Shown: positions 3,840 to 61,748 of the stretch, piece after piece
Position numbering within the stretch: position 1 is the first letter of the stretch
Layout of the letters: every line of letters starts with the position of its first letter
DNA from: a virus
Virus genome (UHGV): UHGV-2031204
Strand: one strand, 5' to 3'
DNA length: 64,000 bases
The notes under the pieces: generated by a model
The model's input: only the letters and a program-made list of their open reading frames with translations
Databases searched by the model: none
What the model was told of the DNA's origin: nothing
Position numbers and translations under genes: made by a program

Positions 3840-3875
3840 ATATTATCCAGGTGTAACACCATTGGAGTTATTAAA

Positions 3876-8089: not shown

Positions 8090-8097
8090 ATAGTTTA

Positions 8098-8121
8098 CCC
8101 CTAGACCGTGTGGTCTAGGGG
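8098..8121. terminator. stem-loop between convergent genes, likely bidirectional terminator
   Basis: CCCCTAGACC/GGTCTAGGGG stem, GTGT loop, T-rich downstream on plus. Confidence 0.6.
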
Positions 8122-8134
8122 TAACTTTACTTTT

Positions 8135-8890
8135 TTATTTTTTGTTTGCCTTAAGCGCTTTTAAGCGTTCGGCAGTAACGTTCAGGCATTCGATTAACTC
8201 GTTGACCTGTTTCATGAACAAACCGAACAGCTCCACCCAATCAGAAGCAAAATCCAACATCATCGTCAGTTCTTTTGCTACATTCGGATGAATGTTTTGT
8301 TCGGACAAGATTTCTGACGTAGTACGAATAGACTCGATTGACTTGTCGATGTTCGTCCGTAGACGTTTTGTGATTTCAACGTTCAGTGCCTTAGCACGAT
8401 TGAACGCAACATCAATTTCAGACGCACTGTGATACGTCTTCTCAATTGGACGCTGGTCAATAACGTTGTTGGTGTACGATTTCGCTAATAAGTTAACCAG
8501 GTCTTTCGGGTTAACATTACGTAACGGTAAATTAACATTTTTGTAACGGAAACCAATCGGTAATGACAGTACCCCCACATCATGTGTAAGGGCCGAAAGT
8601 TGTTTATCGACCGGCAGCAGAATACCCGTATAGATGTTTTGCAGTGAACTCCATACAGATTCTAAGCGGTTCAAGTGATCCATCACGTAGGTATTAAACC
8701 CAGGTGGAACGATAACCAACATTCCCGCAAAGTGTAGGAATTTTTCTTGTTGCATCCACTTGGAAACGTCCGACATCTCGTCATAAGTGGTTAATGCAAT
8801 CTCTTGTTGAGGGCCACTGAACCCTTTCGGTAAGATTGCAGACGCTTTAGCGGCGAAGCTAGATAACGCTGCAAGTGGATTTACATTCAT
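8135..8890 (-). CDS. hypothetical protein (single minus-strand gene inside plus block)
   Basis: 251-aa ORF flanked by terminator and a divergent intergenic region. Confidence 0.5.
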   Translation of the reverse strand: MNVNPLAALSSFAAKASAILPKGFSGPQQEIALTTYDEMSDVSKWMQQEKFLHFAGMLVIVPPGFNTYVMDHLNRLESVWSSLQNIYTGILLPVDKQLSALTHDVGVLSLPIGFRYKNVNLPLRNVNPKDLVNLLAKSYTNNVIDQRPIEKTYHSASEIDVAFNRAKALNVEITKRLRTNIDKSIESIRTTSEILSEQNIHPNVAKELTMMLDFASDWVELFGLFMKQVNELIECLNVTAERLKALKANKK

Positions 8891-8988
8891 TCTAAAACCT
8901 CGGATTATAAGTCAGGGTTACATAGTAAAGTCTTTTTACAGTTCACCCAAACCTTATGACCGAGACAATTCCATAAAGGTAAAGCTCG

Positions 8989-9288
8989 ATGAAAATCAAA
9001 TTACTGACTCGAAACACCACACCGCGTTTAGAACCGGAAATTTATCTGACCCCAGTTAAAAAAGGTCAGAACGGTAAACCTATTCAAGTTGGAAAAGTCT
9101 TGAGCGTAACGTCGTGCCCGAGCGGTAAACGTGTTATGGAACTGGAAATTGACGAGCGTAACAAACGCCGTTTCGAGTCTATTGAAAACCCTTATCCTGA
9201 AAATGCGGAAGAAGTTACTGAGTGGGTAGAGACCTACTTTGAATTCTGGCACAACCGCCGTCTCCTTCTTCCGACCAAGAATCGTTAA
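8989..9288 (+). CDS. hypothetical protein
   Basis: 99-aa ORF at head of a plus-strand operon. Confidence 0.45.
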   Translation: MKIKLLTRNTTPRLEPEIYLTPVKKGQNGKPIQVGKVLSVTSCPSGKRVMELEIDERNKRRFESIENPYPENAEEVTEWVETYFEFWHNRRLLLPTKNR

Positions 9289-12924: not shown

Positions 12925-12995
12925 TCTTACTACCTCAATTTCAAAAAGAAGTCAGACAGATATTATCTACGTGAGACATTCTTTAGGAGTGAATT

Positions 12996-22246: not shown

Positions 22247-22292
22247 ACCTACCTCCTTTCGGAGGTAGGTTAACTTTCTTATTTTTTTTCTT
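22247..22292. terminator. bidirectional terminator
   Basis: ACCTACCTCC/GGAGGTAGGT 10-bp stem, TTTC loop, T-runs on both strands. Confidence 0.75.
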
Positions 22293-22295
22293 TTT

Positions 22296-22859
22296 TTAAG
22301 CGCCTGGAACAATCCCAGAAGAGATATACGTCAAACCGTCAAGTTCAGTGACTTTAATCAACTTCGAAATATCCTTACCGTCGGACGGCAGCTCTGTTAA
22401 GTACACCTCCAGCCGTCCTGTCCACGCCAAAGATGTCCCATTCATGGTAATGATGGTTTTATCTTTGCTGTCTGGTGCAGCTGTTGGGTTCTCAACTTCG
22501 TCGTCAGTAATCTGTAAATTGTACTTATTGCGGAAAAGCTGTAGTACCTCAGATACCGTAGCCGCATTAACACCCGCAACAGAAACTACAAAGTCACCTA
22601 AGAGGTGCTCTAAATCCAAACGACGATAAATAACGTCAATTTTACCAAACGTTTTCTGTTCAATAATTCCCTGGACGCTAAGTTGGGTATTTAATCGCGT
22701 AAATTGAGTTTCTGGTGTTTCTACCGCAGGAATATGTGACGGTGTACCAAAATTCAACTTATCGATTGTAATACCTTTCTCTACCAAACCAGGATTCTTT
22801 TTTACTAATAACTCATAAACCAGTTGTTTTCCTGATTTACCTAATAGCGTATTAGCCAT
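22296..22859 (-). CDS. hypothetical protein, probable virion module
   Basis: Last gene of the minus-strand block ending at the bidirectional terminator. Confidence 0.5.
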   Translation of the reverse strand: MANTLLGKSGKQLVYELLVKKNPGLVEKGITIDKLNFGTPSHIPAVETPETQFTRLNTQLSVQGIIEQKTFGKIDVIYRRLDLEHLLGDFVVSVAGVNAATVSEVLQLFRNKYNLQITDDEVENPTAAPDSKDKTIITMNGTSLAWTGRLEVYLTELPSDGKDISKLIKVTELDGLTYISSGIVPGA

Positions 22860-22875
22860 TATTTCCTCTCAAACA

Positions 22876-25047
22876 TTAACGTGCTTGCGGCAAGAAGATG
22901 TTCGCGATCTGGCGTGCTGGGATAACATCCAGTGCAGAGTTAATAAAACTACCCTGTGACCACGCGGATGCCCAGTTTTGTGCCCAGATGCTCGCATTAA
23001 TCTTGGCACGCGCAATGCCGTTAGTACGCTCGTACAACGTAGCACCACCTAAACACGCCATAAATTCACTAAATTTATTATCGTCATCCCACACACCTGT
23101 GTCGGTAACAATGGGCATGTACATAACGCGAGTCAAATCACGAATAGTAACAGAGATATCGCAAGACAGCGGAACGGAATCACCTGGCCGCCAACCTAAA
23201 CCACCCACACCGAATTGCAATGACATTGACGTCACCATCGCATTACGGAAAGAAAAGCGTCCTTGTGAGTAACACTCTAAATAGAACGGGTGAGTAAAAG
23301 ATTGTTTACCTGTAGCCAGCGGACAAACCGCAGCGATCCAGAATGACAGTGGAACGAGCAAGTCTTGGAAGATATCCAAATCGTTGCCAGACCAACAGCG
23401 TAACGGTATCGTTAACGTAATGTCATCACCCGACGCATCCGAACTGTCCCACACTTCTGGAAAGTCAATTACCGAAGAATTGTACAACGACATGATCCCT
23501 GTCAAATGTAAGGTGTCGGCAACGCCACGCATCGCGGACTTAATCCCGGAAACTAAAGCATCTACAGCGCTGAAACCCGTTTGACCACCGGATAAGTTGA
23601 CTTCTAACGAACGTGCTTTCGCGGTTAACGAGTTAACGGTACCAGAAATCTCTGGCTCTTTAGTAGAGTTAGAGAACGAACGAGAAACCGTGTCTTTAGC
23701 ATCGATACGCCACGATACCCATTGTGAACCATTACGGATTTCAGAAAGCGCATTTTCCTTAATACCGTCGATATAGTTTTTACCCATTTCGACGAAATCT
23801 TTAAAGAAACTACCTACATTTTCTTTAGAACCCGCATCTGCCCATTCTTGTATCTTAGCTATATCAGGGACATCCTCACCACCGATTTCGCTTTCAGCTT
23901 TTTCCGCAGCAGCCATGTTTGCTGCCATTGATTCTCGAAGTTTCTTTGTGTTCGCATCAATTTCATCTGCGGTACCGCCAGCGGTTAGTGTGCCAGTGAT
24001 CCCTTCAACCAACTTAGACTCTTGATCGTTAATATTTTCAAAAGGCGCTTTATAAGCGTTGTCTTTTTGAGCAACCGTTTCTAAGTCATGCAACGAAACT
24101 TCGAAACTACCCGCATCATTAATAACGCGTTTGGAGTACATCCCTTCGTTATAAAACGCACGTAGTTTTCTTGCAAATGCTTCTTCATCTCCACCGCTTT
24201 CAACACGCATTTGCTCTATGGCTTTGGTCTGATAATCCGCTAACGTTTGATAGCGGTTTATCATTCGATAAACGTCAAACTCCCCGTTATCTTTCCAGAT
24301 AGTAGGCAACGAAGCATACCAGTCTTGTTTATCATTGCTGTATGAATTTGTGCCATCGTCGGTATTTTCTTGTAGTTTGAAATTACCGAGCACGCCTGTG
24401 GGAACCAAACGACGATAAATAAGTTGCGTATTCAAGATGTTCTGTACAGCACGCAAATACAAATGCATCGTTGGCTTGACGTAATAGTAACGCGATGTTT
24501 GTTTGTTCAACACCGCTTTTAGAATTCGTGGTGTAATAAGAATAACCGCAAAGGCAACGGTACCTACAGTGGCCCATATTGCTGCTGCACCTAAATACGA
24601 AACCATCGTTCTCATCATACCTGGATAGTCACCAGTACGAGCCAAGTACGCTAGGTTGGAGTCGTACATGTTCGCAAAGAATGCGGCCATACCCAGATAT
24701 TTCGGTTTACCGAACCGACAGTGAACATAAAACGAATTCTGATTAATACTTTCGTAGAAATAAGTACCGAGTTTATACGAACCTGTTTCTCGGTTATTAG
24801 AGAATGTTTTGGTTTCGGCTCTCGGGTTGTCGGGTTGTGCAAATGCGCCAGTCGATGGCGGATCTGCAAACCATGTAAATTGGGGTGGTGTGTTAATCGC
24901 TTTACTGCCACCTAACGTGGTGTCCTCGAACGATAACATACCGTTGGAGTAGCGTCGCAAGGCCAGGAAACGTTCATCTCGGCCATCCAACACGCCGTTA
25001 AAGAGGCTTTTGACCCAGCTTGAGTCGTTAGCTGTTCTAGCGTCCAC
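22876..25047 (-). CDS. hypothetical membrane-associated protein, probable virion module (GTG start)
   Basis: 723-aa ORF with hydrophobic segment SYLGAAAIWATVGTVAFAVILI; GAGG RBS. Confidence 0.55.
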   Translation of the reverse strand: MDARTANDSSWVKSLFNGVLDGRDERFLALRRYSNGMLSFEDTTLGGSKAINTPPQFTWFADPPSTGAFAQPDNPRAETKTFSNNRETGSYKLGTYFYESINQNSFYVHCRFGKPKYLGMAAFFANMYDSNLAYLARTGDYPGMMRTMVSYLGAAAIWATVGTVAFAVILITPRILKAVLNKQTSRYYYVKPTMHLYLRAVQNILNTQLIYRRLVPTGVLGNFKLQENTDDGTNSYSNDKQDWYASLPTIWKDNGEFDVYRMINRYQTLADYQTKAIEQMRVESGGDEEAFARKLRAFYNEGMYSKRVINDAGSFEVSLHDLETVAQKDNAYKAPFENINDQESKLVEGITGTLTAGGTADEIDANTKKLRESMAANMAAAEKAESEIGGEDVPDIAKIQEWADAGSKENVGSFFKDFVEMGKNYIDGIKENALSEIRNGSQWVSWRIDAKDTVSRSFSNSTKEPEISGTVNSLTAKARSLEVNLSGGQTGFSAVDALVSGIKSAMRGVADTLHLTGIMSLYNSSVIDFPEVWDSSDASGDDITLTIPLRCWSGNDLDIFQDLLVPLSFWIAAVCPLATGKQSFTHPFYLECYSQGRFSFRNAMVTSMSLQFGVGGLGWRPGDSVPLSCDISVTIRDLTRVMYMPIVTDTGVWDDDNKFSEFMACLGGATLYERTNGIARAKINASIWAQNWASAWSQGSFINSALDVIPARQIANIFLPQAR

Positions 25048-25057
25048 TTTATACCTC

Positions 25058-25087
25058 TAAAAAAGTAGGGGGTAGGTAACTACCCCC
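25058..25087 (-). terminator. intergenic terminator or attenuator on minus strand
   Basis: GGGGGTAG/CTACCCCC stem followed on the minus strand by TTTTTT, then RBS and GTG 25047. Confidence 0.5.
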
Positions 25088-25095
25088 GATTACTG

Positions 25096-28000
25096 TTACG
25101 CCCGTTTACGACCAACGTCGAGTTGGCGGGCAGGTTGTTCAACCGCGATGTTACGTGATGCTGATCCCGGAGCAGAAGCTGCCGAGGTCGCTGGGGATGG
25201 CTGCATAGCCTGTGGTCTCTGACGAAGAATTGTTACAATCTCTCTCAGATAGCCCGCAGACTCTTTTGCAACCGCCAGCTGCTGTACGCTGATCGGATCA
25301 CCACTGTTCACTGTTGGTGTAGTCTGTGCATCAGACGTTACCGTTGGTGCAGGACGTGCGGATTTCTCCATTTGCTGTCTAGCACCTTCTTTTACTTTGG
25401 CAACTTCCTCTTCGCCCAGACCGTCAGCACGCGCATTTTGACCCACCGTTTCAACAACGACAGACGCATCACTTGGCGTGACGTCACCGCCAGGGCTCGG
25501 CACAGCCGGACCACCACCCGTTGCAGCTTTAATATCTTCAGCGCCCATCGCACCTTTGTCTGCTAAAGCGGAGTCACGATTCGCCTCGTTCGCGGCTGGC
25601 AGGTTATCTGCCGGACCAGCAATAGACGGATCGTTAGCTGCGCCAGCAGCAATTGCAGGAGACGATGGAACTGGTGATAACCCTTTCGTCATGTTTTTCG
25701 CAGACGCAGGATTTGCTGCAATCTCGTTGGTTCCAACCGCACCCATACGGCGGTTCAGTTCCTCGACAACCTCACCGATCGTACGCATCCTAACGCGTTT
25801 CTTCCCGTTCATGATATAGAAAACACCTTCATTACCGTTAAGAACGGCAGGTGTGATGTACTTCACTTTGTCGGGCGACCCGTTAGGATTGGTTTTCCAG
25901 GCTTTAAGGAACTCAGCACCACCACCTGGACCTAAGAAGTGGTACAGGTACGCTACTGCCGGAGGTGGGGCAATTCCACCCAGATCCTTTTGTGCGGTCT
26001 TGATGTTGTCTCTAATGAAGTTAACACCTAAGATTGCGTTAGCCCACGGGTCGAACTGGTCGGTTTGTGGAATACCGTATCTTCGGGCGTACTGCTTCAT
26101 AACCCCATTCCAAGTGCCATTGGTAAATTGGAACAGGCCAGCGGCAGACATCTTATTACTTCTCGGTCTACCAGAGGATGCGCCAGGATAGTTGCCATAC
26201 TGTAAGCCAGATTCTGCTTGTGCCATTGCAATCGCAACAGATGGTGGAACACCCACCATGTTTGCCGCGTCAATAATCAATGACTTGATGGCTTCAGTAT
26301 TTGACTGCATCGGTTTACCGAGCATTTCCCTTGGGTATTTAGTCACTAAGGATTTGTAATCGCCGTCTTGTAACTCACCGAGGGTGATACCAGATTGTCC
26401 AGTGGAATACTTCGCATAGTTCCCTATACCCATATCGCCAACAACTTGTGATAAGTCACCTGGCGTTCCGTAGGACTGACCACCTTTCGGTAAGTATCCG
26501 TCGTTTGAAGCTTCGCCGTAGCTGTTAATTCCCTTATAACGCTCTTTGCTATCTTCATTCGTCTGATGGACACTGGAGTTTGTCGCTGGTGATTTCCATG
26601 TCATACGCTTAGGCGTGCTCGGTGTTTCTTTGAGCATGTTCCTTACAGCCAGATCGGGTTCTTTAGACAACTCTTTCAACGTTGCTAATTCTTCCCTCAC
26701 TGAACCTGCATCGGTATTCGCATCGCCTCCTAACGGGTTAAATGCGATTTCCCACACAGACTGACGGATACCCCCTTTCATGTTGTAAGCACCACGCATC
26801 ATCAGTGCCAGCTCATAGAGGAAACCCCCTGTGAGTTTCAAATCCAACGGATCGGCATGAGGTACGTAGCGTTTTACACCATAAACGTAGGTCATGAATA
26901 CAGGTAAGAAACGATTATAGAACCAGTTCTTGTAACGCTCCTCTTTTGGACCGCCAATTGCATCAGGCGCAATCGCAGAAATTGCTTTCTTCCAATCGCC
27001 CTTATAAATGCAATTTTTGATATCCGTGTCTTTCAACACTTCTTTCTCAAGCAATCTAAAGAGGGTACGTGTTGTCTCATTGACAGATTTCACACCGTAA
27101 GATTTCCAACGGACGGATTCCATCGCGTCCAAATCTTTCTTCTCAGGTAATGCTCTCCAGTCAACTTGAATTTGAACCTGTTCAGTACCGTCTTCCCAAC
27201 CCTCAGCTTTAGCAACAGTTTCGTTACGCTCGGTATCGTTCTTCGCGAGTACCTGCGAAGATTCTGCCACAGAAGCAACCTTATGCCCTTCAGGCACAGC
27301 ACCGGCTCCAGTTGTTTCCTTACGCTTATCATCACGACGCATGTTGATCGAACGGAAAACGCGATCTTGCGCCTCAACAACTTCTTCGCCTGACAAAAAT
27401 TCTGCCGGTGTGAAGGTCACGAAATCCCACGCTTTAGAGAACCAACCTTGGTTAACTTTACGGGGATCTGTCAGCGATTTAAAAGCAGGTGCATCTTTTG
27501 TCATCTTCATTTTGTTAAAGATGGTCAGCATGTCTGCTTTTGATACCTTCGACGGATTACCAACATCAGCTAACGCGATATCGTTATCCATTGAACGTAG
27601 CGCTGTAATCCAACGTAAATAGATCGGCACAAAACGTTGTAGCATAAACGCGGTAAACGCCAGCATTTCGCCTTTGTCTTCTACGTTAGTACCAAACCCT
27701 TCGGCCAGTTTCTTCACGTCGTCACCGGACAAACCACGCAACTGTGCTTGACCATTCTCTGTATAAGAGATGTACGGTTTCAAGTTGTCTTCTAAATAAC
27801 GCGCTTTTGCGCCGTCGTCGGAAGACCATTCATCATGATCTCTAAATCCGTACTGCGCCAATCGCATGTTATCCAGATACTGGGCATTTTCACGGGTTGC
27901 AGTTTTATACGCAAACCAAGACAGCGCAGCGCCTGCAGCGACCAAGCCAATAATCGGCCAGCCAACCGCAGTTACCACTGCAGAAGCCGCTGTTGCAACA

Positions 28001-31000
28001 GCACTCACCGCAGGGACAGCCAAACGGGTCACAGCAAACTTACCAACGTTCCACAACGCTTTGCCTGCAAACCCAACCGGCTTAAAGATTCCCCATTTTG
28101 CGACTTTACCTAAGATTGAACCCACTGTGCCTAAAATACTCACAATTGGTCCTACCAACGGCAGTCCTTTAAGGAAATCCATTACCCCACGTTTACCGCC
28201 TTTCTTCTCAGCCTCTTTCTTAGCCTTTTCCTCTTCCTTAGAACGACGACGGCGTCGGAAGAACTGGAAGTAATCGCGTTTTTCATCACTGGCAGGCGGT
28301 TTATTGCGTTGGCCGAACTTACTGAACATGGTTCTTAACAAACCATCCGAAGCACCTGCTTTTTCTGCAGAATCACGCATGGTATTAAACCACGACATTT
28401 CCTGAAGATTAACCATTCGGTTCAGGCGTTCCAATAAAGCTGACCCAACGCTACGGGCTTTCTGCTTCCCTTTATTAATCACACGTCCAGCGCTATCCGT
28501 TACGGTGTCTAAGTCTTCTTTTGCCGCATCGACAATACGTGTTTTAGACACCTTACCTCTTGCGTAGATGTGCTGACGATAAAACTCAGCAACGTCGTCA
28601 TCGCGTCCTGCTAAACGACTCTCCATTCGATAACGTGTTCCAATATCGTAACGCGGATCACGGAAGGTATCGACCATATCGCTTGCACGGCCACGGAAAC
28701 GGTCAAACCAACCTCGTGCTGCACCTCCCCAACGAGAAAGATGACCACCTACCGCACTGCGGTAACGGGATATCCTGTCACGCATCCGACCACGCCAATC
28801 CCGGAACCCTTGAAAATGTTCACGGAACCCTTCGCGTATGTCCTTAGCACGCTGGAATAATCCTTTAACTGAACTGGCCCCCGTATTCCGCTCCATCTGT
28901 TCTGTCCAGGTGTCATCTTCAGCTTCACCTGGCAATCTCCGGTTAAGGAGTTTGTAGATACGGATTAAGATGTGGTTAGTTTTACGGCCGTTCGACCATG
29001 AAAACACACTAAACCCACCGCCAGAACCCCCTTCCTTACGGTTCTGCCACCAACGTGTCAACGGGTTATCAGAAGCCAACTCTTTGAGTTTCTCAAACCC
29101 GCGTTTTGCATTGTTCCACAGACGAGCTGGCATTCCCGTTACACGGGAAATCATGCTCTGTAAACGGGTTTTCTCTGCGCCCTCTGGAACCTCATTTAGC
29201 CACTCACGTGCTTTCTCGAACAGGGAAGCCGCTTTAGGTGAAATGAAACCCAGAAGTTTCTTCGGTAAGGTCACAGCTTTATTTACTGCCGTTCCTGCTT
29301 TCCCAGAAATATACTGGAATAGCGCTTGAACTTTACCGCCTTTGTAGAAGCGTAGTTTACCTGCGGCAGCCAAATCAGCAGCCGCTAAGATTAAATTACC
29401 CGCTTCGTCGACAATATCACGTCCCAGTTTAATATCGTCGAGAGTTTTAAGTTGAACCAGCTTCTCAGTTTTCGGGTCAGCCTGGTAATATTCCCCAGCT
29501 TCTAAACGGCTTCCTTGTAATACGACGTTGCCGCGTTCATCGTAAATATCACGAACGCCTAAAACGCCTTTACCGAAAGCTACGGCAGAATTCCAACCCG
29601 TCGATAAAGTACCTGTTACTAACCCTTTCAGTCGGCTAAATACACCAGGACCTTCAGAGGAACCGCCTGAGAATTTCCCACGAATAAAACCACCTAATGC
29701 TTGTAGGCGATCTTTCCCGCGCAGGAACAGATTCTTACCAAACCGCCCTACGCCTGAACCGGTATCCCAAAGCACCCCGGCCCAGCGACGTAACAAACCT
29801 GTCTCACCCAGTACAATACGTTTGCGTTTACGACGACGTTTACGACCCGAGTCACTCGAGCTTTCAGATTCGTCACCGCCATCGCGACTACCGCCTAAAC
29901 TGGCTAGGAGAATGCCTTCCTCATCCATGTTCTTAACGTGTTTGAGGATGTCTTGCACTGTACTAGATTCTGGCTGTTTGCGTACGGCATCAATCAAACG
30001 GTCGAATTGCTGCTCCAGCCCAGCGTTCGTATCTGGACGACTGCTTAAAAGTTCAACAAAGTTAGTGGATTTCTCTCCATAAAGTACCGCAGCGAGTTGA
30101 CGTGCGCTTAAACCACGACCGCGACCACCTTTTCCACCACCACGTACGTTGGACAGTTCTTTGTCTTCAAAGCTCGGCTCTGCACCTGCACCCATTCGAC
30201 GCAAGTAATCGCCCAACGCAGAACCGTTTTGCAACTTACGCTGAATCTCTTGCTCACGGGTTAACGAACGTCCAGAACGGGTCTTACCCATCGACAGGTC
30301 GTTAAATAGCGTATAGGGATCGTTAATGTCCTTATCGACTTCGAAGATATCGTTCTTCGCATCGTATTTAAAAATGCCGGAATCACGAAGTGCGTTCTCG
30401 CCGTAAATCACAGACGCAGCATCAACCGTGTCCTGACGTGCACGAATCGTTGACTGGATAGCGGCGATTTTGTTTGAAATCGCGTTGCTCAGTTCATGGT
30501 GCCCACCAACCAGTTCCGCAGAACGGGCTTCTAAAACACCCTGAATCGCTTCCACAGCGTTTGCGTTCATGTAGCGATACATGTGCATCGGGTCTTTCAA
30601 TAAAGACCCTACATCGAACGCTTTCCCTTCTGAGGCACGAGATTCGATGTAGTCCGCTAATGCTTGACGTGTTTTCCGATCGAGCGTTTTATCTTTATCG
30701 ATAAAGTCAACAGTATCGTTGATGTAAGTCTGTAAACGTTTACGCTGGTCGTCATTAGCAACGGCCTTACGTACACGGTTGCCAATAACTTTACGATCCA
30801 CCATACCGCGCGTGGTCAGGTCATAAACCTGATCGTGGTGTTCACCATATCCACGACGAATAGATTTGTTAATCTCGGACAGTAACGTCGGAATAACTTC
30901 GGTGATGCTAAGGTAAGCTTTACGATCGAATTTCGCTGCGGCAGAAAGAGATTCCGCAGAACGATCGTCTAATGCTAACGTTTCGCGACGTAGCGGGTTA

Positions 31001-32262
31001 ACTAGCCCCAAATCGTGCATTAGTCGAAACAGATCAGCTAACGGGCCGCTTGTTTCTCCTGCTATTGCCGAGTTAGAAATAGACGACAAATTACCAAAAC
31101 CATACTTCGCCAACTGTAGGCGTTTCATGACTTCTGGATTTTTCTCTAACTCGCCACGAGTCCAGTTTTGAAGACGTTCGATCTGTGGCTGTAAGAGACG
31201 TTTTGCTAACCAACCACCTGCAAAACTTGCCGCTTTATTACGCGAGTTTGTGTTACGACGGTCAGGAGACAACGATGAGCTGTCCGACATGCCAAAGTCA
31301 TCTTCCTGAGCCATCCCTAGAACTTGTTCTAGAATCCCACGGCCATCGCTAAAGACGTTCGAGATTTTCTTCTTCGCATTTTCGCGAATCTGGTCAATGA
31401 AATTATCCGCGTAGTGTAAGGGGTTCATCCACTCCGCAGCTTTACGTTTTACATTAGCCCAACGAATTTCAGAAAACTCTTCCTTCGCGTAGTCTGGCAG
31501 CGCTGTGTTCTTAACGATGGCTTCTAATGCTGGTGTATTGCGTGCAAACTCGTCTTGTTTGAGTTTCGCAATATCTTGCAAAGCAAACAGCGTTCGATAC
31601 TGCAGCTCTAACTGCTTACGCTGAACATTTAACAACACGCCACGACTTAAGCTAGTCGTTAAGTTGACGTCTTTTGCAATACCGATTACTGTCTGGAACA
31701 GTGCGTCGGACTTCATGTCCTTAATCGTGTCACGCAAGCGGTCTTCAACCATCCCTTCTTGCGTTTCGCGTTGCTGGTCCGCTGTTTGCGGTGCGCCTGA
31801 GAACACGCTGTCCAGCTCACGATCCATCATCGCTTGTTTAGGATCGTAATTCCCATAGTCGATTTGATCGTTACGTGCCCACTTGTCGATTTTCCGTGTT
31901 ACGGATTCCGGTAAATACCGTTTCAGTGTTGGACCTAACTGTCTCGCTTGCATCTTAACGACGCGAGACGTCTTTTCAATCTCGTCTTTCGTATGGGCCA
32001 GAATGTCTTGACCTGCAGCTTTAACGTTTTGATAGCCTTCGTAGGCTTCTGCCGCAGGTTTAGGCATCCCTTTTAAAATAACCTGATCACGTTTGTTTTC
32101 GGGCCAGATAGTCGACAACGCCGACTTACGGGCAGCACGAAATGTGTCCATGACCGGGTTACGCGATTGGTCTTGTTGACGAGGGGGCTCATCAAAATCG
32201 TCCCAGTCGTCCATGTTATCAAGATCGATTTCATCGAAATCATCTTTACCTTTTTTAGCCAT
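25096..32262 (-). CDS. giant virion-type protein with lytic transglycosylase (SLT) domain
   Basis: 2388 aa; acidic N-terminus; central hydrophobic region; SLT motifs AESGLQYGN, GLFQFTNGTWNG, AYLYHFLGPGGG in C-terminal third. Confidence 0.7.
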   Translation of the reverse strand: MAKKGKDDFDEIDLDNMDDWDDFDEPPRQQDQSRNPVMDTFRAARKSALSTIWPENKRDQVILKGMPKPAAEAYEGYQNVKAAGQDILAHTKDEIEKTSRVVKMQARQLGPTLKRYLPESVTRKIDKWARNDQIDYGNYDPKQAMMDRELDSVFSGAPQTADQQRETQEGMVEDRLRDTIKDMKSDALFQTVIGIAKDVNLTTSLSRGVLLNVQRKQLELQYRTLFALQDIAKLKQDEFARNTPALEAIVKNTALPDYAKEEFSEIRWANVKRKAAEWMNPLHYADNFIDQIRENAKKKISNVFSDGRGILEQVLGMAQEDDFGMSDSSSLSPDRRNTNSRNKAASFAGGWLAKRLLQPQIERLQNWTRGELEKNPEVMKRLQLAKYGFGNLSSISNSAIAGETSGPLADLFRLMHDLGLVNPLRRETLALDDRSAESLSAAAKFDRKAYLSITEVIPTLLSEINKSIRRGYGEHHDQVYDLTTRGMVDRKVIGNRVRKAVANDDQRKRLQTYINDTVDFIDKDKTLDRKTRQALADYIESRASEGKAFDVGSLLKDPMHMYRYMNANAVEAIQGVLEARSAELVGGHHELSNAISNKIAAIQSTIRARQDTVDAASVIYGENALRDSGIFKYDAKNDIFEVDKDINDPYTLFNDLSMGKTRSGRSLTREQEIQRKLQNGSALGDYLRRMGAGAEPSFEDKELSNVRGGGKGGRGRGLSARQLAAVLYGEKSTNFVELLSSRPDTNAGLEQQFDRLIDAVRKQPESSTVQDILKHVKNMDEEGILLASLGGSRDGGDESESSSDSGRKRRRKRKRIVLGETGLLRRWAGVLWDTGSGVGRFGKNLFLRGKDRLQALGGFIRGKFSGGSSEGPGVFSRLKGLVTGTLSTGWNSAVAFGKGVLGVRDIYDERGNVVLQGSRLEAGEYYQADPKTEKLVQLKTLDDIKLGRDIVDEAGNLILAAADLAAAGKLRFYKGGKVQALFQYISGKAGTAVNKAVTLPKKLLGFISPKAASLFEKAREWLNEVPEGAEKTRLQSMISRVTGMPARLWNNAKRGFEKLKELASDNPLTRWWQNRKEGGSGGGFSVFSWSNGRKTNHILIRIYKLLNRRLPGEAEDDTWTEQMERNTGASSVKGLFQRAKDIREGFREHFQGFRDWRGRMRDRISRYRSAVGGHLSRWGGAARGWFDRFRGRASDMVDTFRDPRYDIGTRYRMESRLAGRDDDVAEFYRQHIYARGKVSKTRIVDAAKEDLDTVTDSAGRVINKGKQKARSVGSALLERLNRMVNLQEMSWFNTMRDSAEKAGASDGLLRTMFSKFGQRNKPPASDEKRDYFQFFRRRRRSKEEEKAKKEAEKKGGKRGVMDFLKGLPLVGPIVSILGTVGSILGKVAKWGIFKPVGFAGKALWNVGKFAVTRLAVPAVSAVATAASAVVTAVGWPIIGLVAAGAALSWFAYKTATRENAQYLDNMRLAQYGFRDHDEWSSDDGAKARYLEDNLKPYISYTENGQAQLRGLSGDDVKKLAEGFGTNVEDKGEMLAFTAFMLQRFVPIYLRWITALRSMDNDIALADVGNPSKVSKADMLTIFNKMKMTKDAPAFKSLTDPRKVNQGWFSKAWDFVTFTPAEFLSGEEVVEAQDRVFRSINMRRDDKRKETTGAGAVPEGHKVASVAESSQVLAKNDTERNETVAKAEGWEDGTEQVQIQVDWRALPEKKDLDAMESVRWKSYGVKSVNETTRTLFRLLEKEVLKDTDIKNCIYKGDWKKAISAIAPDAIGGPKEERYKNWFYNRFLPVFMTYVYGVKRYVPHADPLDLKLTGGFLYELALMMRGAYNMKGGIRQSVWEIAFNPLGGDANTDAGSVREELATLKELSKEPDLAVRNMLKETPSTPKRMTWKSPATNSSVHQTNEDSKERYKGINSYGEASNDGYLPKGGQSYGTPGDLSQVVGDMGIGNYAKYSTGQSGITLGELQDGDYKSLVTKYPREMLGKPMQSNTEAIKSLIIDAANMVGVPPSVAIAMAQAESGLQYGNYPGASSGRPRSNKMSAAGLFQFTNGTWNGVMKQYARRYGIPQTDQFDPWANAILGVNFIRDNIKTAQKDLGGIAPPPAVAYLYHFLGPGGGAEFLKAWKTNPNGSPDKVKYITPAVLNGNEGVFYIMNGKKRVRMRTIGEVVEELNRRMGAVGTNEIAANPASAKNMTKGLSPVPSSPAIAAGAANDPSIAGPADNLPAANEANRDSALADKGAMGAEDIKAATGGGPAVPSPGGDVTPSDASVVVETVGQNARADGLGEEEVAKVKEGARQQMEKSARPAPTVTSDAQTTPTVNSGDPISVQQLAVAKESAGYLREIVTILRQRPQAMQPSPATSAASAPGSASRNIAVEQPARQLDVGRKRA

Positions 32263-32291
32263 AACGTTTAATCCGTATCAGGAGATTTAGC

Positions 32292-33911
32292 GTGAATAAA
32301 CTTAATTGGGTTGACTTTTATCTGCTCAATGTAAACAAGTCTCTTGTGTCGCGATTACGACCCGTCACGACCACGGATACTTTCCAGGGGTTAACAAAAA
32401 ACTTTCACCCCGAAGGTCTTTACTCTACAGAGATTTTTGGACTCACGGGTAGTGAAGCGCGAGACTCTACATTCTCTTATATCGATATTAAGCTCGATAT
32501 CATTTCGCCGACAGTGTGTTTGGCGTTATTCCAACTCAAACAACTCTACGAAGAAATTTGTTCTGGAAAACGCTACGCAACGTGGAGCGAAAAAGAAAAA
32601 GATTTCGAACCGGCCTTGCCGGGAGACCCAGGCGCAGATACCGGTTTTAACTTCTTCCTCAGTCACTATAACGATTTAAAACCTAAGCGTAACGAGTCTC
32701 TACAACGTGACGAAACCGTGGATTTCTTTTTGAAATTCCGTCCCGTTAGTCTTAGTCGATACGTTCTCGTGTTACCCGCGGGTTTACGCGATTTAGTAAT
32801 TCGACAAGATGGTAGAGAGCAAGAAGAAGAAATCGGCGGGATGTATCGTCGGTTGGTATCTCTCGCCAGAGCGATCCCTGACCGGGCAACCCGTGTCGAG
32901 TTAACTAACCCCGTACGCTGGAAACTTCAACAAACCTTCAATGATATCTGGATGTATTTCTTTAACATCCAGGACGGTAAAGGGGGTTTCCAACGTCGTA
33001 AAGTGACGTCTCGTAAGTTAATGAACGGGACACGTAACGTACTGTCCTCGTTCTCGACGGGGTCTAAATGCATGGGTCGTGAAGACGCTATTCGTCCCAC
33101 CGACACCAAAATTGGTTTATACCAGGGTTTAAAAGCATTACTCCCCGTTGCGCAGTACCAGATACGAGAACGTTACCTCGGTAACATCCGTGCCGGTGAT
33201 GGCAACCTTTACGGCGTAAACACCAAAACCCTTAAACGTGAATTCTTGGAAGTAGGTGGTCGTGTATACGACACCTTTACCACCGACGATGGGATTGAAT
33301 CCTTAATCAACCGAATGGAAGCTCGCGAGCTTCGCCATCAACCGATTATGTTGGACGACACCCACTACGTTGCGTTGGTTTACCAAGACACCAAACATTT
33401 TAAGGTGTTCTACGATATTGAAGAACTTCCTAAAACGTTTGACCGAAAATTCGTCCACGGTATGACGCTCGTCGAATTGCTTTATTTGTCGGGCTACGAA
33501 CTTTGGAACGATTATTTCGGTTTCGTTACACGTTATCCCGTTACAGGCCGAGGCTCGACGTATTCATCGACCATAAGATTGGAGACCACCACGTCATCTT
33601 TATACTTAAAAGAACTGGAAGATGACTGGGAAACTGAAAAACCCCGAGGGGCTATCAGCTACCCTGACCGGTCGGTTCCTACCTTCGTTGAGTCTATGGC
33701 ACCACACCCTTCACGCCTAGGTGGGTTAGGGGGTGACTACGACGGCGATACCGGGTCGTTTAACGCGCCTATGTCCCAGGAAGCGCTCGAGGAAAACCGG
33801 AACTGGATACACTCGAAAAACTACTGGTTCGATTCTGATGGGAACTTTAAAATCAATCCTATCAACAACGTGATTAAACGTGCAACGCAAGCGTTATTAA
33901 AGAACCCATAA
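32292..33911 (+). CDS. multisubunit RNA polymerase beta-prime homologue, N-terminal module (GTG start)
   Basis: Matches E. coli beta-prime blocks: FHPEGLYSTEIFG, YVLVLPAGLRDL (VLPVLPPDLRPL), MYRR, GKGGFQRRKVTSRKLMNGTRNVL ([23 protein letters not shown]), GDYDGDTGS (NADFDGD). Confidence 0.75.
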   Translation: MNKLNWVDFYLLNVNKSLVSRLRPVTTTDTFQGLTKNFHPEGLYSTEIFGLTGSEARDSTFSYIDIKLDIISPTVCLALFQLKQLYEEICSGKRYATWSEKEKDFEPALPGDPGADTGFNFFLSHYNDLKPKRNESLQRDETVDFFLKFRPVSLSRYVLVLPAGLRDLVIRQDGREQEEEIGGMYRRLVSLARAIPDRATRVELTNPVRWKLQQTFNDIWMYFFNIQDGKGGFQRRKVTSRKLMNGTRNVLSSFSTGSKCMGREDAIRPTDTKIGLYQGLKALLPVAQYQIRERYLGNIRAGDGNLYGVNTKTLKREFLEVGGRVYDTFTTDDGIESLINRMEARELRHQPIMLDDTHYVALVYQDTKHFKVFYDIEELPKTFDRKFVHGMTLVELLYLSGYELWNDYFGFVTRYPVTGRGSTYSSTIRLETTTSSLYLKELEDDWETEKPRGAISYPDRSVPTFVESMAPHPSRLGGLGGDYDGDTGSFNAPMSQEALEENRNWIHSKNYWFDSDGNFKINPINNVIKRATQALLKNP

Positions 33912-33920
33912 GGCTAAGCA

Positions 33921-36900
33921 ATGCTGCTCATTAAACAGTTTAACCAACGCTTCTCGGTGCGTAAAACCGATGAGTTTGGTAATCCGAGGATTATCCCGCT
34001 CGAGAAGCTACAGATACCGCGAGGTTCTGTACTCCATGTCATTGATCTCGACCAGGTGGTGTTAGCGCCGCCTGCAACACTCGAGATTATTCAACCGTTA
34101 GAAAAACCTGCACAGGTTCGTCACCACTTTAAATTACCGGAAGACGGTATTAGCGGACATCCGCGCAACAAACCTGTTCAGGGGCAAGAACGTGCTATCT
34201 TTGCCTACCACCGTGCAAACCGCCCGATGCGTCGTCTTACCTCAGACGAACTGGTTCGCAAAGACTTAAAAGTTCTCCTGATCGAGAACTACACGCCGAT
34301 GCTATCGCACTACTACTATCCTGATACCCAGTTAGCCTGGTACGATAGATTGCGTAACATCCAACTGCTGATGATTAACCAGTTCAAATACAACACGCAA
34401 GAATACATGCGTCAGAACTATTTCGTTATTGAACTGGGTTCGGCATTACCTTCGTTCCAGAAGTTTCAAACAACTTATAACGACCGTGTTAAGAGCAAGA
34501 TTGAGAAGTTCCAGGACTTCAACTTGCTGTGGTTATTAGAACTGTTTGCTTGGGCTTATGGAAAACAATCCGATTCCTTATTCGCGGGAATGGATTTAAC
34601 TCAGCTGTCACGAATGAACTTTATCTTCACCCACAACACGGGCTTTACGTCCATGAACATGGGTGTTGTAGAGAAAATGCGTAAGTCCTCCGGCGGTCGT
34701 TTAAGTGACGACCAAATGGCCAGGATGTTCTACCGTACGCTGGTGCGTGTAATGACACAAGCACCGTCTAACGCGTACGAAGCGGAATTCCTAACGCCTG
34801 AAGGTGACGAACGTGTTTTCCTTAAAGACGTCGAAGAAGAAACCGTTGATGTTGTCGATGATGACGACGTTGTTAATGACGCTGTGGTCGAATCCGATAA
34901 CACCTTCGATGAAAAAGAAGACGTCGTTATTGAAGAACCGAAGGAAGACGTCAAACCGACGACAATTGTTGTCGAGAAAGTCATTCCGCACGACGAGATT
35001 ATTAAACAGGAAGCACAACGCTTAGCTGAAGCGGGCCGCTTAAGTTCTAAAGCTTATCAGTTCCTGTCAGAATCGTCTAAACGTTTCGTTCAGCTGCCTA
35101 ACCCGTATAACCCGAAAGAAACCTACGGGGAAGCGCTTACTGTTCACGAGAAAGACGTCGTCGTTAAAGCCGAGCCGAAAAAGGTTCAGCGACTTGTTAC
35201 CGACGAAGGGTGGGCCGAGAACGTCACCGACCAGATGGTGAAACAATACAACCAGACCATGATGACCAAAGACGTGCTGGCGGCGGTCGCCAGTTCACAA
35301 CGTTTGGGTCTGGCGATTCACAATCACACGGTGGAAAAAGAAGTTTCTGTTACAGGGACTATCGAGCACCACACTTTACGTGTTCAACCAGTCGGTGGTG
35401 AGCCGACAACCGTTCGCTTCTCTATCCCAGGCTTGACCGAGGACGGTACTTGGGTAGCTAATGGTGTCGAATACACCATGCGCCGACAACGTGTGGACTT
35501 ACCGATTCGTAAGGTTGCACCGGATACTGTCGCACTGACTACCGCATACGGTAAAAACTTTGTCCGTCGTAGTGATAAGGTCGCAAACGACTACGGTCGT
35601 TGGTTAACCAACGCGATTATCACACGCGCTGTTGACCCGACAAACACCGAAGTCACCGATGCACGTTTAGCAAATGTGTTCGATCCTACGCAACATCTGC
35701 CTCGTCAGTATACGGAGATTGCACGTCGTATTGCCAGCTTTAATGCGAATGGCTATATGTGGAACTTCGACTACAAAGAAGCCGTTAACTTCTTTAATGA
35801 CGAGCAACTCAGAGACGCCGATGCTGCCAAACTTTTGCCAGTGGCGAAACGTCCGCGTAGTGAAACAATCCTGGCAATGGATGACAAATCCATGCTTTAC
35901 GGTGTGAACGGAAACAAAGTTGAGCCGGTGGGAACTATCGCAGAGGTACTGGGCTTTAATAACCAGAAAGTGCCTCGCGAAATGACCGAGCTGTCTTTGA
36001 TGGGTAAATCTTTGTCGCTTGGTTTTATCTTCTCGTTCTACCTTGGACTCCAGGGAATGTTGAAACATTTCGGTATCCAGTACGAGTTGGTTCCCGCAGG
36101 GCAGCGTGTTGATAAGAATGCCTACGACAGTATTATTCGGCTACAAGACTGTAAACTTTTAGTTACATGCGATAACGATCAGCAGAAGATGATTCTGCAT
36201 GGTTTGGATCGCTATCTCAAACACCTGGTTGCTTATACCGAATCAGAAGCAGACCGCGAAGACATTTACCTGAACTTATTACGTGATGCAGATGGCCTAA
36301 CACCACGGTACATCAACGAGCTGAAACAGATGCGGTCCGCGTTTGTTGACGACATGCACGCACGTATCCTCAGGAAAATGGGTGAACCGGAAACCTTTAT
36401 TGGCTTGTTGGAACGTTCTAACGAACTGTTACAAACTGACCACTCTTTACCAGAGATTAACGGCGATGAAATGATGTTCTTAGGCAATCAGAGGATTGCC
36501 TACCACATCTATACTGCGATGGTCAGAGCGATGCGTAACTACAATAACGCACCGGGCAGTAACCGTAAGTTCGAACTGACGCAAGACATGGTTTGGGGTG
36601 CAATTAACTCCGACCCGTCGGTACTTTTGGCACCAGGCGCTAACCCTATCCAGTCAATTAAAGAAAAAGACGTTATTACGATGGGGGGTACAGGTGGCCG
36701 TAATCGTAAAACGATGGTCTACCACACGCGTGAATTCCAACCCAGTGATATCGGGATAGTCTCGGGTAACACCGTAGATAACGGTGACGTAGGTATTACA
36801 GCTTTCGTCACCAATAACCCACGTTTTGACACCGTTGACGGTACTACATTTAAACGTGAAGAGAAACCCCCGAAACCAAGCGATACCCTTTCGTTTATTG

Positions 36901-38087
36901 ACGGGTTAGTACCAGATACGTTAATGGACGACGCAAAGCGTCAAAACTTCGTTGGGATTCAGTTAGGTTCTGCCACCAGTTGTAATGGGGCAACCACAAC
37001 CCCGTATCGTACTGAACAGGAGAAATTCGTCGCACACCGTACGTCGGTGAAACATGCACGCGTTATTGATAAAGCAGGTAAGATTACTGGTCTGTCGAAA
37101 GACCACATTGAAATTACGTACGAAGATGGAAGTAAAGAAGCCTTTCCTCTAGGGCGCTGGTTCGGCCCCCACGAAGGTACCTTCTATCCGCACACCTTGG
37201 TAACACGCTGGAAAGCCGGTGACAAGCTCCCGGCCGGAGCAGTGATTACGTACAACGAGCAACACTTTGAACCTGATATTTACGATCCTACTCAGGTTTC
37301 CTGGAAAAACGGGGTGCTGGCTACCGTTGCTTTATTAGAAGCTGAAGAAGTTATCGAAGACTCCAATGCAATTTCTGAACGGTTCGCGAAGAAAATGGTA
37401 GGGCAGGTAACAAAGCTGAAAGAAGTAACGATTAACAGCAACCAAATGCTTTTGGAAATCGTGAATGAGGGCGACCACGTAGACGTCGATACAATCCTAT
37501 GCACGTTTACTGACGACTTGACAGGCGATATGAGTGCCTTTAGTCAGGAAGCAGCCGCAACGTTGCAAAGTTTAAGTTCGTACGCACCTCGTGCAGGGGT
37601 ACGTGGTATCGTGGATAAAATCGAAGTGGTGTATCACGGTGAAACCGAAGACATGACACCAAGCCTTGCTGAACTGGTGCGTAAATACGACAGAATTCGT
37701 CGTAAAGCCGCACTAGCAGTCGGACGAGGTGATCCGGTTTCAGGCAGTGTAAACGGCGACTACCGTGTCGAAGGTGTACCATTAGCCTTTAACTCACTTT
37801 GTGTTCGATTCTTTATTACACACGACGTTGAGATGGCCGCTGCGGATAAGATGGTTATTGCTAACCAGCTAAAAACCACCGTACAAGAAGTCATGTACGG
37901 CGACAACAAAACAGAGGATGGTGATGACCTGGACGTGTTGTTCGGTCGTGATTCTGTCGATGCGCGTATCGTAGGTTCAATCCAACGTATCGGTACCGCG
38001 AATGCTGTAGGTGAACAAGCCGGGATTCTCATCGGGCGTATACTCGATGGGGAAGCTGTGCCTGATTTACCCGCGACACTTAAATAA
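33921..38087 (+). CDS. multisubunit RNA polymerase beta homologue with long N-terminal extension
   Basis: GGTGGRNRK...[25 protein letters not shown] parallels beta GPGGLTRER...[47 protein letters not shown] parallels SLIPFLEHDDANRALMGA; AGDK block. Confidence 0.7.
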   Translation: [1388 protein letters not shown]

Positions 38088-48946: not shown

Positions 48947-49008
48947 GGAACGTCTCCATATTCAGTCTTTAAGACCTTGAAAAAGGGTCATACTAAGGTA
49001 TCATACTC

Positions 49009-57910: not shown

Positions 57911-57983
57911 TAGTGAACCTCGAAATAATTACGGATAGATATTATCCTAGTGAGAGTCTTATTCTACCTAAAGGAGTTTTAAA

Positions 57984-61672: not shown

Positions 61673-61748
61673 GGGGGTGTAGCACAATTGGTAGTGCAGC
61701 GGTCTCCAAAACCGAAGGTTGGGAGTTCGAAACTTCCCGCCCCCGCCA
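61673..61748 (+). tRNA. tRNA-Trp (anticodon CCA)
   Basis: Manual cloverleaf: D-stem GCAC/GTGC with G18 G19, anticodon loop CTCCAAA (U33, CCA, A37), T-arm GGGAG-TTCGAAA-CTTCC, acceptor GGGGTG with 1:72 mismatch; 3' end uncertain by a few nt. Confidence 0.75.

Follow-up and report, generated by a model that had tools for sequence, protein, structure and literature searches.

A stretch of 64,000 nucleotides (nt) from the virus genome UHGV-2031204 (referred to here, at its full length, as the window) contains on its minus strand, at positions 25096-32262, a gene for a giant protein that is placed head to head with a gene for a piece of an RNA polymerase, and only 29 nt separate the two start codons. 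This arrangement raises the questions as to what kind of protein the giant gene encodes and how two genes diverging from so short a spacer are transcribed. Based upon the results described here, it is likely that the protein is the giant tail protein of an SPN3US-like phage, and that its gene combines a head-to-head junction with transcription by a polymerase of the phage itself and with attenuation at a hairpin. The observations that bear upon this reading are the orthology of the protein, its domain anatomy, the synteny of the locus, the content of the spacer and the covariation of the hairpin. The window is part of an SPN3US-like, phiKZ-related (Chimalliviridae) jumbo phage, and both the family to which the locus belongs, as a diverged member, and its synteny are known.

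Family and domain anatomy of the giant protein

The giant gene begins with ATG and comprises an open reading frame (ORF) of 2388 amino acids (aa), which is orthologous to SPN3US gp239 and phiKZ gp181. A match to PHROG 3201 spans the full protein (E = 0, 2066 bits). In tblastn searches, it was 61% identical over 100% of its length to its counterparts in SPN3US (gp239), phiEaH2 and Proteus phage 7; with other jumbo phages of Erwinia and Cronobacter the identity was 47% and 38%, and with phiKZ gp181 it was 24%. At the protein level, 235 phage records match the giant ORF; a megablast search of the window against the phage collection gave no match. In a search of 5.8 billion proteins, 115 homologues were detected, the best 85 of which are 2199-2572 aa long (mean 2399, standard deviation 92), with identity extending down to approximately 23%. 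Judged by these sequence relationships, the protein is a member of the gp181/gp239 family of giant tail proteins.

Of the orthologues, SPN3US gp239 has been found by mass spectrometry in whole virions and is missing from tailless mutant particles, and it has been named the tail tape measure protein by its authors (PMC5105663, PMC10052503). According to a review, phiKZ gp181 is a virion-associated lysin with measured muralytic activity (PMC5380687, citing Briers et al. 2008). By analogy with these two proteins, the window's protein would be expected to be located in the virion and to possess muralytic activity. The first-pass annotation, which was made from the sequence alone, had described it as a virion protein for cell-wall penetration or ejection; the orthology to gp239 and gp181 agrees with a wall-cutting part of the virion, whereas ejection from the head gives way to a component of the tail.

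The features that had been ascribed to this protein, viz. an acidic N-terminus, a central hydrophobic region and Lys/Arg-rich tracts, could all be located in the translated ORF. Their coordinates, all on the minus strand, are as follows: an acidic tract of the sequence DDFDEIDLDNMDDWDDFDEPP covers aa 7-27 (32182-32244), a basic tract RKRRRKRKR is found at aa 807-815 (29818-29844) and a second one, RRRRR, at aa 1336-1340 (28243-28257), and a hydrophobic, membrane-insertable block with Kyte-Doolittle windows above 1.5 extends over aa 1359-1451 (27910-28188). A lytic transglycosylase domain, delimited by Pfam SLT, phmmer and Foldseek, occupies aa 1981-2154 (25801-26322). The core of this domain (aa 1995-2093; 25984-26280) matches the Pfam SLT profile (PF01464) with an E value of 2.5e-8 and 33.9 bits, against a cut-off of 21.3. 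As this position corresponds to 83-90% of the length of the protein, the domain is present as claimed, in the C-terminal fifth rather than more loosely the C-terminal third. The transglycosylase is also related to phiKZ gp144, an enzyme of solved structure (phmmer E value of 7e-11), and in the alignment of the two the sequence AQAES, containing Glu2017 (26212-26214), is placed on ASIES of gp144, containing Glu115, and GLFQF (26125-26139) on GWFQF. Glu115 is said to have been identified by Fokine and co-workers in 2008 as the catalytic residue of gp144. An AlphaFold2 model of aa 1300-2388 matched the structure 3BKH in Foldseek with an E value of 2.7e-6, and the runners-up were Slt, MltF, MltE and the phi6 lysin (E values of 0.03-0.13, none of them individually significant). 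In the models of both halves, the protein is mainly helical, with several helices of 40 residues. From its sequence, the giant protein is thus taken to carry a family-1 lytic transglycosylase near its C-terminus, with Glu2017 as the predicted catalytic residue, and the hydrophobic block may have a role at the membrane.

Several of these features are retained across the family. All 22 of the sampled members, down to approximately 23% identity, have an acidic N-terminal tract, with 11-16 Asp or Glu residues among their first 40 aa, and the particular wording MAKK...DDFD..EPP..RNP is restricted to the closer members. Because the tract is kept family-wide, it is a feature of the protein and not a by-product of a promoter embedded in its gene. 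The hydrophobic block is found at approximately 53-62% of the length in 18 of the 22 sampled homologues, and it was absent at the Kyte-Doolittle threshold in the other four (P0058, P0088, P0100 and P0104). In some members, the SLT module has been swapped or supplemented by a chitinase-like (PF00182), VanY (PF02557), CHAP (PF05257) or glucosaminidase (PF01832) module, and the members with a different wall-cutting module (P0042-P0045, P0087, P0092, P0098 and P0110) still have a total length of approximately 2400 aa. The steady length, together with a wall-cutting module that can be exchanged, fits a ruler-like tail protein bearing a lysin, and not a tail fibre, as most database records have it.

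The head-to-head junction with the polymerase gene

The gene facing the giant gene (32292-33911, plus strand) begins with GTG and encodes the N-terminal piece, of 539 aa, of the beta-prime subunit of the virion RNA polymerase. Its earlier identification as a beta-prime gene is borne out by a match to PHROG 2986, by 32% identity to phiKZ gp180 and by the catalytic motif DYDGD at aa 482-486 (33735-33749, plus strand), within GGDYDGD at aa 478-486. In SPN3US, the corresponding protein, gp240, has also been described as the N-terminal part of beta-prime of the virion polymerase (PMC5105663, PMC10612078). The next gene (33921-38087, plus strand) encodes the N-terminal piece of the beta subunit, of 1388 aa, a homologue of SPN3US gp241 (PHROG 3148, synteny, PMC5105663). 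Neither of these polymerase pieces had a significant match in sequence searches of the PDB. Rightward from the junction, beta-prime is the first gene of a long polymerase/head unit, and leftward the giant gene is the first of a tail unit of three genes.

The spacer between the two start codons (32263-32291), AACGTTTAATCCGTATCAGGAGATTTAGC, consists of two back-to-back ribosome-binding sites. That of beta-prime, CAGGAG, is located 7 nt before the GTG (32279-32284, plus strand) and that of the giant gene, GGAT, 8 nt before the ATG (complement of 32271-32274). The core of the spacer, TTCCAATTCAGGAG, which is conserved in most lineages, corresponds to just these two Shine-Dalgarno sequences. The ORF of 2388 aa and its distance of about 29 bp from the polymerase start had both been reported in the first-pass annotation, and both were confirmed, the spacer being exactly 29 nt. 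The same annotation had considered that a revision of the start codons might reveal a longer intergenic space. Among 11 aligned lineages, the first 17-27 residues of both the giant protein and beta-prime are conserved as protein, with synonymous differences, 10 of 11 retain the GTG of beta-prime, and neither gene has an in-frame start further upstream; hence, neither start can be moved and a wider gap is ruled out.

The head-to-head pairing of the giant gene and beta-prime, together with a gp182-like gene, was found in every phiKZ-like relative examined. In distant phiKZ-like phages, the start-to-start gap is 152 bp (Goslar), 124 bp (Ralstonia phage FLC1-1B), 75 bp (phiKZ), 60 bp (Noxifer), 44 bp (Moabite) or 43 bp (Eowyn). 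Within the SPN3US-like clade it is 23-32 bp, and a gap of 29 bp is present in four separate genera. The gap measures 29 bp in SPN3US, phiEaH2, Huxley and the lineages L008 and L009, 28 bp in L013, 32 bp in L011, L012 and L014, and 23 bp in CR5. Within the window, this junction is the shortest of the divergent ones, the others being 62-98 bp long. A literature search found no report of the conservation of this junction across phiKZ-like phages or of its compression, in one clade, to bare ribosome-binding sites.

Some further observations concern the sequence around the junction. An island of 255 nt (32120-32374) has a single mismatch to L008 when compared base by base, and the profile of L009 agrees; both lineages are 82% identical overall to the window. 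Regulatory constraint was rejected as the cause of this island, as no such excess of conservation is seen at the junction in lineage pairs of 65-75% identity, and for the same reason the island is probably a recent recombination tract. The closest public DNA, IMGVR_UViG_3300045988_113438, has an identity of 96.6% around the junction (29792-36407), which drops to 74.5% from the 3′ end of the giant gene into the 5′ half of the gp182-like gene (24395-26382), a contrast that indicates that the tail module is mosaic. As regards beta-prime, the annotated phiKZ gp180 (6321-7793 of L005) ends with ...LGAD, which is aligned with GGD of the window's GGDYDGD. In phiKZ, gp179 is the ORF between gp180 and gp178, and the beta-prime piece of the window is uninterrupted; gp179 is among the predicted intron-associated endonucleases of phiKZ (PMC10914365, PMC11512511).

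Transcription of the giant gene and beta-prime

The phage phiKZ develops independently of the host polymerase, with virion and non-virion RNA polymerases of its own (PMC7598289, PMC4666361). Its late promoters consist of TATG, a motif that is read by the beta-like subunit and at whose G transcription starts (PMC4666361, PMC12809450), and the footprint of the polymerase extends from about -30 to beyond the start site (PMC12809450). In phiKZ, the genes of the virion polymerase are of the middle class (PMC7598289, PMC4666361, PMC12809450, PMC10612078). As this relative transcribes with its own polymerases, the room for sigma-70 promoters is irrelevant here. No sigma-70-like sites (-35/-10 hexamers with 16-18 bp spacing) were found near 32.2 kb or in the spacer, and the 12.5 kb scanned contain fewer of them than expected (7 against 14.3), for which reasons sigma-70 promoters at the junction were rejected. 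It had been claimed earlier that the spacer leaves no room for two conventional promoters. The conclusion stands, with neither a sigma-70 site nor a TATG present, but not the premise, since it is phage-type polymerases that are relevant.

On the sense strand of the giant gene, the region from 20 to 60 nt before its start contains no conserved TATG. The sole TATG touching the spacer was rejected, as it overlaps the start codon and phiEaH2, Huxley and L011-L014 do not have it. In phiKZ, Noxifer and FLC1-1B (gaps of 60-124 bp), a TATG is present within the gap, approximately 28-31 nt upstream of the giant start in the first two and further upstream in FLC1-1B; the relatives with gaps of at most 44 bp have no TATG there. 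Other candidates fared no better. As promoter motifs of the window, TATGACC (6 matches against 6.3 expected), CTTATGRYCGA (3 against 3.5) and CTTAGTATGACC (33 against 43.8) are not enriched, and CTTAGTATGACC has no match near the junction; a window-wide promoter consensus could not be built from the motifs of other junctions. A phiKZ middle-promoter motif (catctttacc, containing TTTACC) at approximately 32239-32248, just within the 5′ end of the giant gene, was rejected, as relatives do not conserve it. Since the spacer consists of two Shine-Dalgarno sequences and contains no TATG, the start sites have to be either inside the opposing coding sequences or of a non-consensus type. Weak promoters would suffice for this purpose, as both products are low-copy parts of the virion, and if only a few tens of bp lay between the start sites, simultaneous binding of two polymerases would be precluded, to judge from the footprint of the phiKZ enzyme (PMC12809450).

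For beta-prime, a weak candidate promoter is a plus-strand TATG at 31992-31995, 297 nt upstream of its start, which is inside the codons His90-Thr91 of the giant gene and is found at the aligned position in all 11 lineages. His90 is encoded by CAT in all seven deep lineages and is one of only 13 all-identical codons among 218. The conservation of this TATG can mostly be put down to the His-Thr-Lys residues of the giant protein, which are themselves conserved.

Elsewhere in the window, TATG blocks of the clade are readily seen. A probable late promoter, CCTTAGTATGACC (48986-48997, minus strand), precedes the tail sheath gene (46889-48946, minus strand) by 43 nt and is identical in 13 lineages, inside a divergent spacer that is otherwise variable and of 55-62 bp. 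A second block of this spacer, TATGGAGAC, overlaps the ribosome-binding site. Two outward-facing, clade-conserved blocks are found at 8891-8988, one on each strand, between the genes 8135-8890 (minus strand) and 8989-9288 (plus strand). Their sequences are GTAAAAAGACTTA(C/G)TATGTAGCC, i.e., GTAAAAAGACTTAsTATGTAGCC, and CCTTATGAC, and the G of each (8921, minus strand; 8958, plus strand) is approximately 31 nt from the start of its gene. The SPN3US-like clade thus appears to use promoters of the TATG type, with a consensus, CTTAsTATG, that is longer than that of phiKZ. The spacer and the 300 nt upstream of the giant gene contain no match to the block of the sheath type.

An invariant 23-nt block inside beta-prime

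A block of 23 nt at 33567-33589, reading GTGGTCTCCAATCTTATGGTCGA on the minus strand and TCGACCATAAGATTGGAGACCAC on the sense strand of beta-prime, is a candidate antisense promoter of the TATG type. The G of its TATG is at 33572, 1310 nt upstream of the giant ATG, and no other minus-strand TATG in the 1.6 kb preceding the giant gene is conserved; this one is present in 11 of 11 lineages. Read on the sense strand, the first 17 nt of the block do not vary among seven lineages whose overall identity is no more than 65-75%, and this core is the longest invariant run in an alignment of 6.4 kb, the next runs being 11 and 8 nt long. On the sense strand, the codons are TCG ACC ATA AGA TTG GAG ACC AC. 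Of the 171 invariant beta-prime codons with four- or six-fold degeneracy, just eight are fixed in all seven lineages, and five of these (S426, T427, R429, L430 and T432) are inside the block. Codons 426-430 (TCG ACC ATA AGA TTG, including the three-fold degenerate ATA) form an unbroken fixed run, and two of them are rare, ATA accounting for 5.7% of Ile and AGA for 5.3% of Arg codons in the window's phage. The exact 17-mer is present as a single copy per contig in 20 IMG/VR contigs, and those that could be matched to known relatives are SPN3US-like jumbo phages of 220-250 kb; its position inside beta-prime was checked in the 11 aligned lineages. In its extent (approximately -17 to +6 relative to TATG) and its CTTATG core, the block is similar to those of the sheath gene and of 8890/8989. 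Between 33572 and 32262, a terminator scan found no terminator-like hairpin on the minus strand, and no conserved minus-strand ORF exists between 32263 and 33572.

These features admit of more than one explanation. The block may not be a promoter, serving instead as a DNA site for packaging, replication or a nuclease, or as a programmed pause at AUA-AGA; this is an unlikely account, yet one that deserves consideration. It would suit the single copy per genome, and two adjacent codons of the block are among the rarest in the phage. The block also precedes the catalytic DYDGD by 51 codons, where a pause could aid folding or assembly. However, a pause requires two rare codons only and not 17-23 fixed bases, a second arm or a repeat, as is typical of a protein-binding site, was not seen, and no link of the block to packaging was found in this analysis.

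The two promoters could, alternatively, both be of a non-consensus type and placed back to back at or inside the 29-bp spacer, with leaders of approximately 12-20 nt and with mutually exclusive use, which we regard as rather improbable. The late promoters of phiKZ are known to need specific contacts only from -3 to +1, along with downstream DNA (PMC4666361, PMC12809450), 32 of the 149 mapped phiKZ start sites have no motif (PMC10914365), and the demand would be small, with about 10 virion polymerases per virion (PMC10612078). The conservation of the spacer core TTCCAATTCAGGAG in most lineages also speaks for such sites, but the conserved bases are wholly accounted for by the two Shine-Dalgarno sequences, no TATG is present, and leaders of this length barely fit a ribosome-binding site.

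The most economical reading of the block itself is an antisense late promoter, which we put forward with little confidence. The giant gene would then be transcribed from a start at approximately 33572 on the minus strand, with a leader of approximately 1.3 kb that is antisense to beta-prime codons 1-427, and beta-prime from the TATG at 31992-31995; this whole arrangement is similarly doubtful. Under it, the two mRNAs would overlap head to head over approximately 1.6 kb and interfere, which could serve as a switch from middle to late expression. The invariance of the 17-nt core, the fixed degenerate codons and the rare ATA and AGA are all in its favour, as are the occurrence of the core once per genome in 20 contigs, its status as the sole conserved minus-strand TATG within 1.6 kb, the likeness of extent and CTTATG core to the other TATG blocks, and the lack of an intervening minus-strand terminator. 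On the other hand, an antisense leader of 1.3 kb would be unusual, the likeness to other blocks is limited mainly to TATG and a few flanking bases (CTTATGRYCGA occurring, as noted above, 3 times against 3.5 expected), the block could act at the level of DNA or of translation instead, and the evidence for the plus-strand TATG at 31992-31995 is weak. It is a slightly more remote proposition still that, in SPN3US-like phages, the late promoter of the giant gene moved from the shrunken spacer into the block, so that an antisense run of 1.3 kb through the 5′ part of beta-prime couples the onset of the tail protein to the damping of beta-prime. If this were true, beta-prime would be damped, by transcriptional interference or by antisense RNA, as synthesis of the tail protein begins.

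In the literature searched, no report was found of a 23-nt element, conserved at the nucleotide level, inside the beta-prime gene of the SPN3US-like clade. If the block were an antisense late promoter, it would provide an example of promoter-in-gene regulation for a sigma-less jumbo-phage RNA polymerase and also an easy test case for promoter determinants beyond TATG, which are an open question according to the literature (PMC4666361, PMC12809450).

The hairpin downstream of the giant gene

At the other end of the giant gene, a GC-rich hairpin followed by a T-tract (25058-25087, minus strand) is a putative intrinsic terminator or attenuator. The stem-loop (25068-25087) has a stem of 8 bp with 6 G-C pairs and a loop of 4 nt, it begins 8 nt past the stop codon, and the minus-strand sequence that follows is TACTTTTTTA. 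By itself the hairpin has a weak folding z-score (-1.6), and Rfam gave nothing at this position, its matches being to a tRNA only. A perfect GC-rich hairpin is present at the syntenic site in 23 of 23 relatives examined, including phiKZ and Eowyn, 5-12 nt past the giant stop and 10-25 nt before the next start, with loops that are mostly GAAA or GCAA. In a loop-anchored alignment of 15 distinct lineages, five of seven stem pairs are changed on both sides, with 23 compensated cells against 5.5 in shuffles. As this alignment was built from the hairpins themselves, the stem pairing of 100% follows from its construction and the evidence resides in the diversity of stems at one syntenic site. The annotation of Moabite also marks a terminator at this position. 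Furthermore, perfect GC-rich hairpins with stems of 7 bp or more number 30 in the window and 3 in shuffled sequence, and 18 of the 30 fall in the intergenic 6% of the window; in view of this abundance the hairpin is regarded as standard operon punctuation. Several of the GC hairpins are bidirectional between convergent genes, e.g., those at 22247-22270 and 8095-8124.

The gene beyond the hairpin (22876-25047, minus strand) encodes a tail protein of 723 aa, homologous to phiKZ gp182 (25% identity, E value of 1e-37; PHROG 3181) and to SPN3US gp238, an essential tail-associated protein (PMC5105663). Its GTG start (25047) is conserved in most lineages. It is followed by the third gene of the minus-strand unit, a DUF7941 gene of 187 aa (22296-22859), and the unit is closed by the bidirectional terminator hairpin at 22247-22270, as identified in the hairpin scan. 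In phiKZ and 201phi2-1, long-read mapping has revealed a conserved, prematurely terminated small RNA from the 5′ untranslated region of the gp182 homologue (PMC11512511). The occurrence of this RNA at the syntenic site supports conditional termination at the hairpin, and it also suggests a start site for the gp182-like gene inside the 3′ end of the giant gene; the last 250 nt of the latter contain no conserved TATG. A hairpin with a U-tract separating the two genes had been noted earlier together with attenuated read-through: the structure itself is confirmed, with covariation in 15 lineages and presence in 23 of 23 relatives, and read-through is plausible by analogy with phiKZ and 201phi2-1. 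On this analogy, the hairpin most likely lowers, without abolishing, transcription into the gp182-like gene.

Proposed mode of action

We propose that the giant protein, of approximately 2400 aa, is mostly alpha-helical and ruler-like, and that a few copies of it would be located in the lumen of the tail tube or at the tip of the baseplate. Contraction of the sheath would expel it, the peptidoglycan would be cut open locally by the transglycosylase, and the hydrophobic block may help to span the membrane for the entry of DNA and of the co-packaged virion RNA polymerase. The giant gene and beta-prime would be transcribed by the phage's own non-virion polymerase and not by the host sigma-70 enzyme, from start sites that may be inside the opposing coding sequences or non-consensus, and the hairpin at 25068-25087 would be one of the standard GC-hairpin terminators of this phage, partial in its effect.

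Several observations weigh against parts of this proposal. The confidence of the AlphaFold2 models is low to medium (mean predicted local distance difference test scores of 56.6 and 67.9 for the two halves), and the parts of the giant protein other than SLT have no similar chain in the PDB. In the review cited above, phiKZ gp181 is placed at the puncturing device or needle of the baseplate and not in the tube (PMC5380687, citing Briers 2008). A frameshifted tail-assembly chaperone pair, which is a mark of classical tape measure genes, is not found beside the giant gene, where the divergent beta-prime is upstream; for this reason, we label the protein only as tape-measure-like. The genes downstream of it are those of the gp182-like and DUF7941 virion proteins. 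As regards the junction, synonymous-site conservation is mildly raised in the first 15 codons (0.59 and 0.56 against 0.46 and 0.445), values that are within the range of other windows and were hence rejected as a promoter signal at the two 5′ ends, and deep lineage pairs do not show excess identity there. Lastly, the T-tract of the hairpin is strong in the window but weak in several relatives, and the hairpin could therefore be an RNA-stabilising or processing element instead.

Comparison with known systems

A close counterpart of this locus is that of SPN3US, whose gp239 (259 kDa) shares with the giant protein 61% identity over 100% of the length, and which also has the 29-bp spacer, the GTG of beta-prime and the position of the hairpin in common with the window. 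The two differ in that the window represents a different genus-level lineage, with no megablast match and a nucleotide identity of approximately 68-71%, and in the core of the spacer, which is CCAATTC in SPN3US against CCGTATC in the window. In phiKZ, gp181 (2237 aa) is of a similar size class and is homologous across its length, with 24% identity in two segments; it likewise has a transglycosylase near its C-terminus, a divergent beta-prime piece upstream and gp182 downstream behind a GC hairpin. Unlike that of the window, the spacer of phiKZ measures 75 bp and includes a TATG 31 nt before the giant start, and gp181 is highly diverged in sequence, with an N-terminus that, by eye and as judged from the annotated start only, does not show the acidic tract.

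In T5 (Pb2) and in phages of the TP901-1 type, tape measure proteins are long helical proteins with a hydrophobic segment and a muralytic module, and they are expelled at infection, all of which would be shared by the giant protein. It differs from these proteins in having no detectable sequence homology to them and no adjacent chaperone pair, and it is approximately twice as long as a helical ruler for a tail of approximately 200 nm. T5 Pb2 is entered in a table of the review PMC5380687. Most database records name the homologues as tail fibre ("putative tail fiber protein") and the earlier wording was that of an ejection protein, but a tail fibre or a head-packaged ejection protein is very improbable, as no fibre-like or receptor-binding domains were found, the predicted helical model, the membrane-like block and the muralytic domain point elsewhere, and a location in the head is excluded by the loss of SPN3US gp239 from tailless particles (PMC5105663, PMC10052503). 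As a tail protein, it is a diverged addition to a partly characterised family of virion lysins, and it should be useful for the mining of enzybiotics and for defining the conserved core of the family.

With respect to transcription signals, the TATG blocks of this clade upstream of the sheath gene and of two other genes are comparable to the late promoters of phiKZ, and GC hairpins punctuate the operons as in phiKZ and 201phi2-1 (PMC10914365, PMC11512511). Unlike the situation in phiKZ, no promoter of this type is found at the giant/beta-prime junction of the window, and the consensus seems longer (CTTAsTATG). The hairpin at 25068-25087 occupies the same syntenic intergenic site as the small RNA of phiKZ gp182 and 201phi2-1 gp277 (PMC11512511); the window differs from these two in having no conserved TATG in the last 250 nt of its giant gene.

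Other sites in the window

A near-palindromic, AT-rich sequence, AGATATTATC, is found at 3838-3847, 12958-12967 and 57937-57946. It is followed, 4 nt on, by GTGAGA (12958 and 57937) or GTGTAA (3838), and two of the copies are central in divergent spacers of 71 and 73 bp. The number of matches to AGATATTATC in itself is not significant (5 against 2.9 expected). By their placement, these sites look like early promoters for the virion polymerase, which are perhaps bidirectional. In addition, a tRNA-Trp gene with the anticodon CCA is present on the plus strand at 61673-61748.

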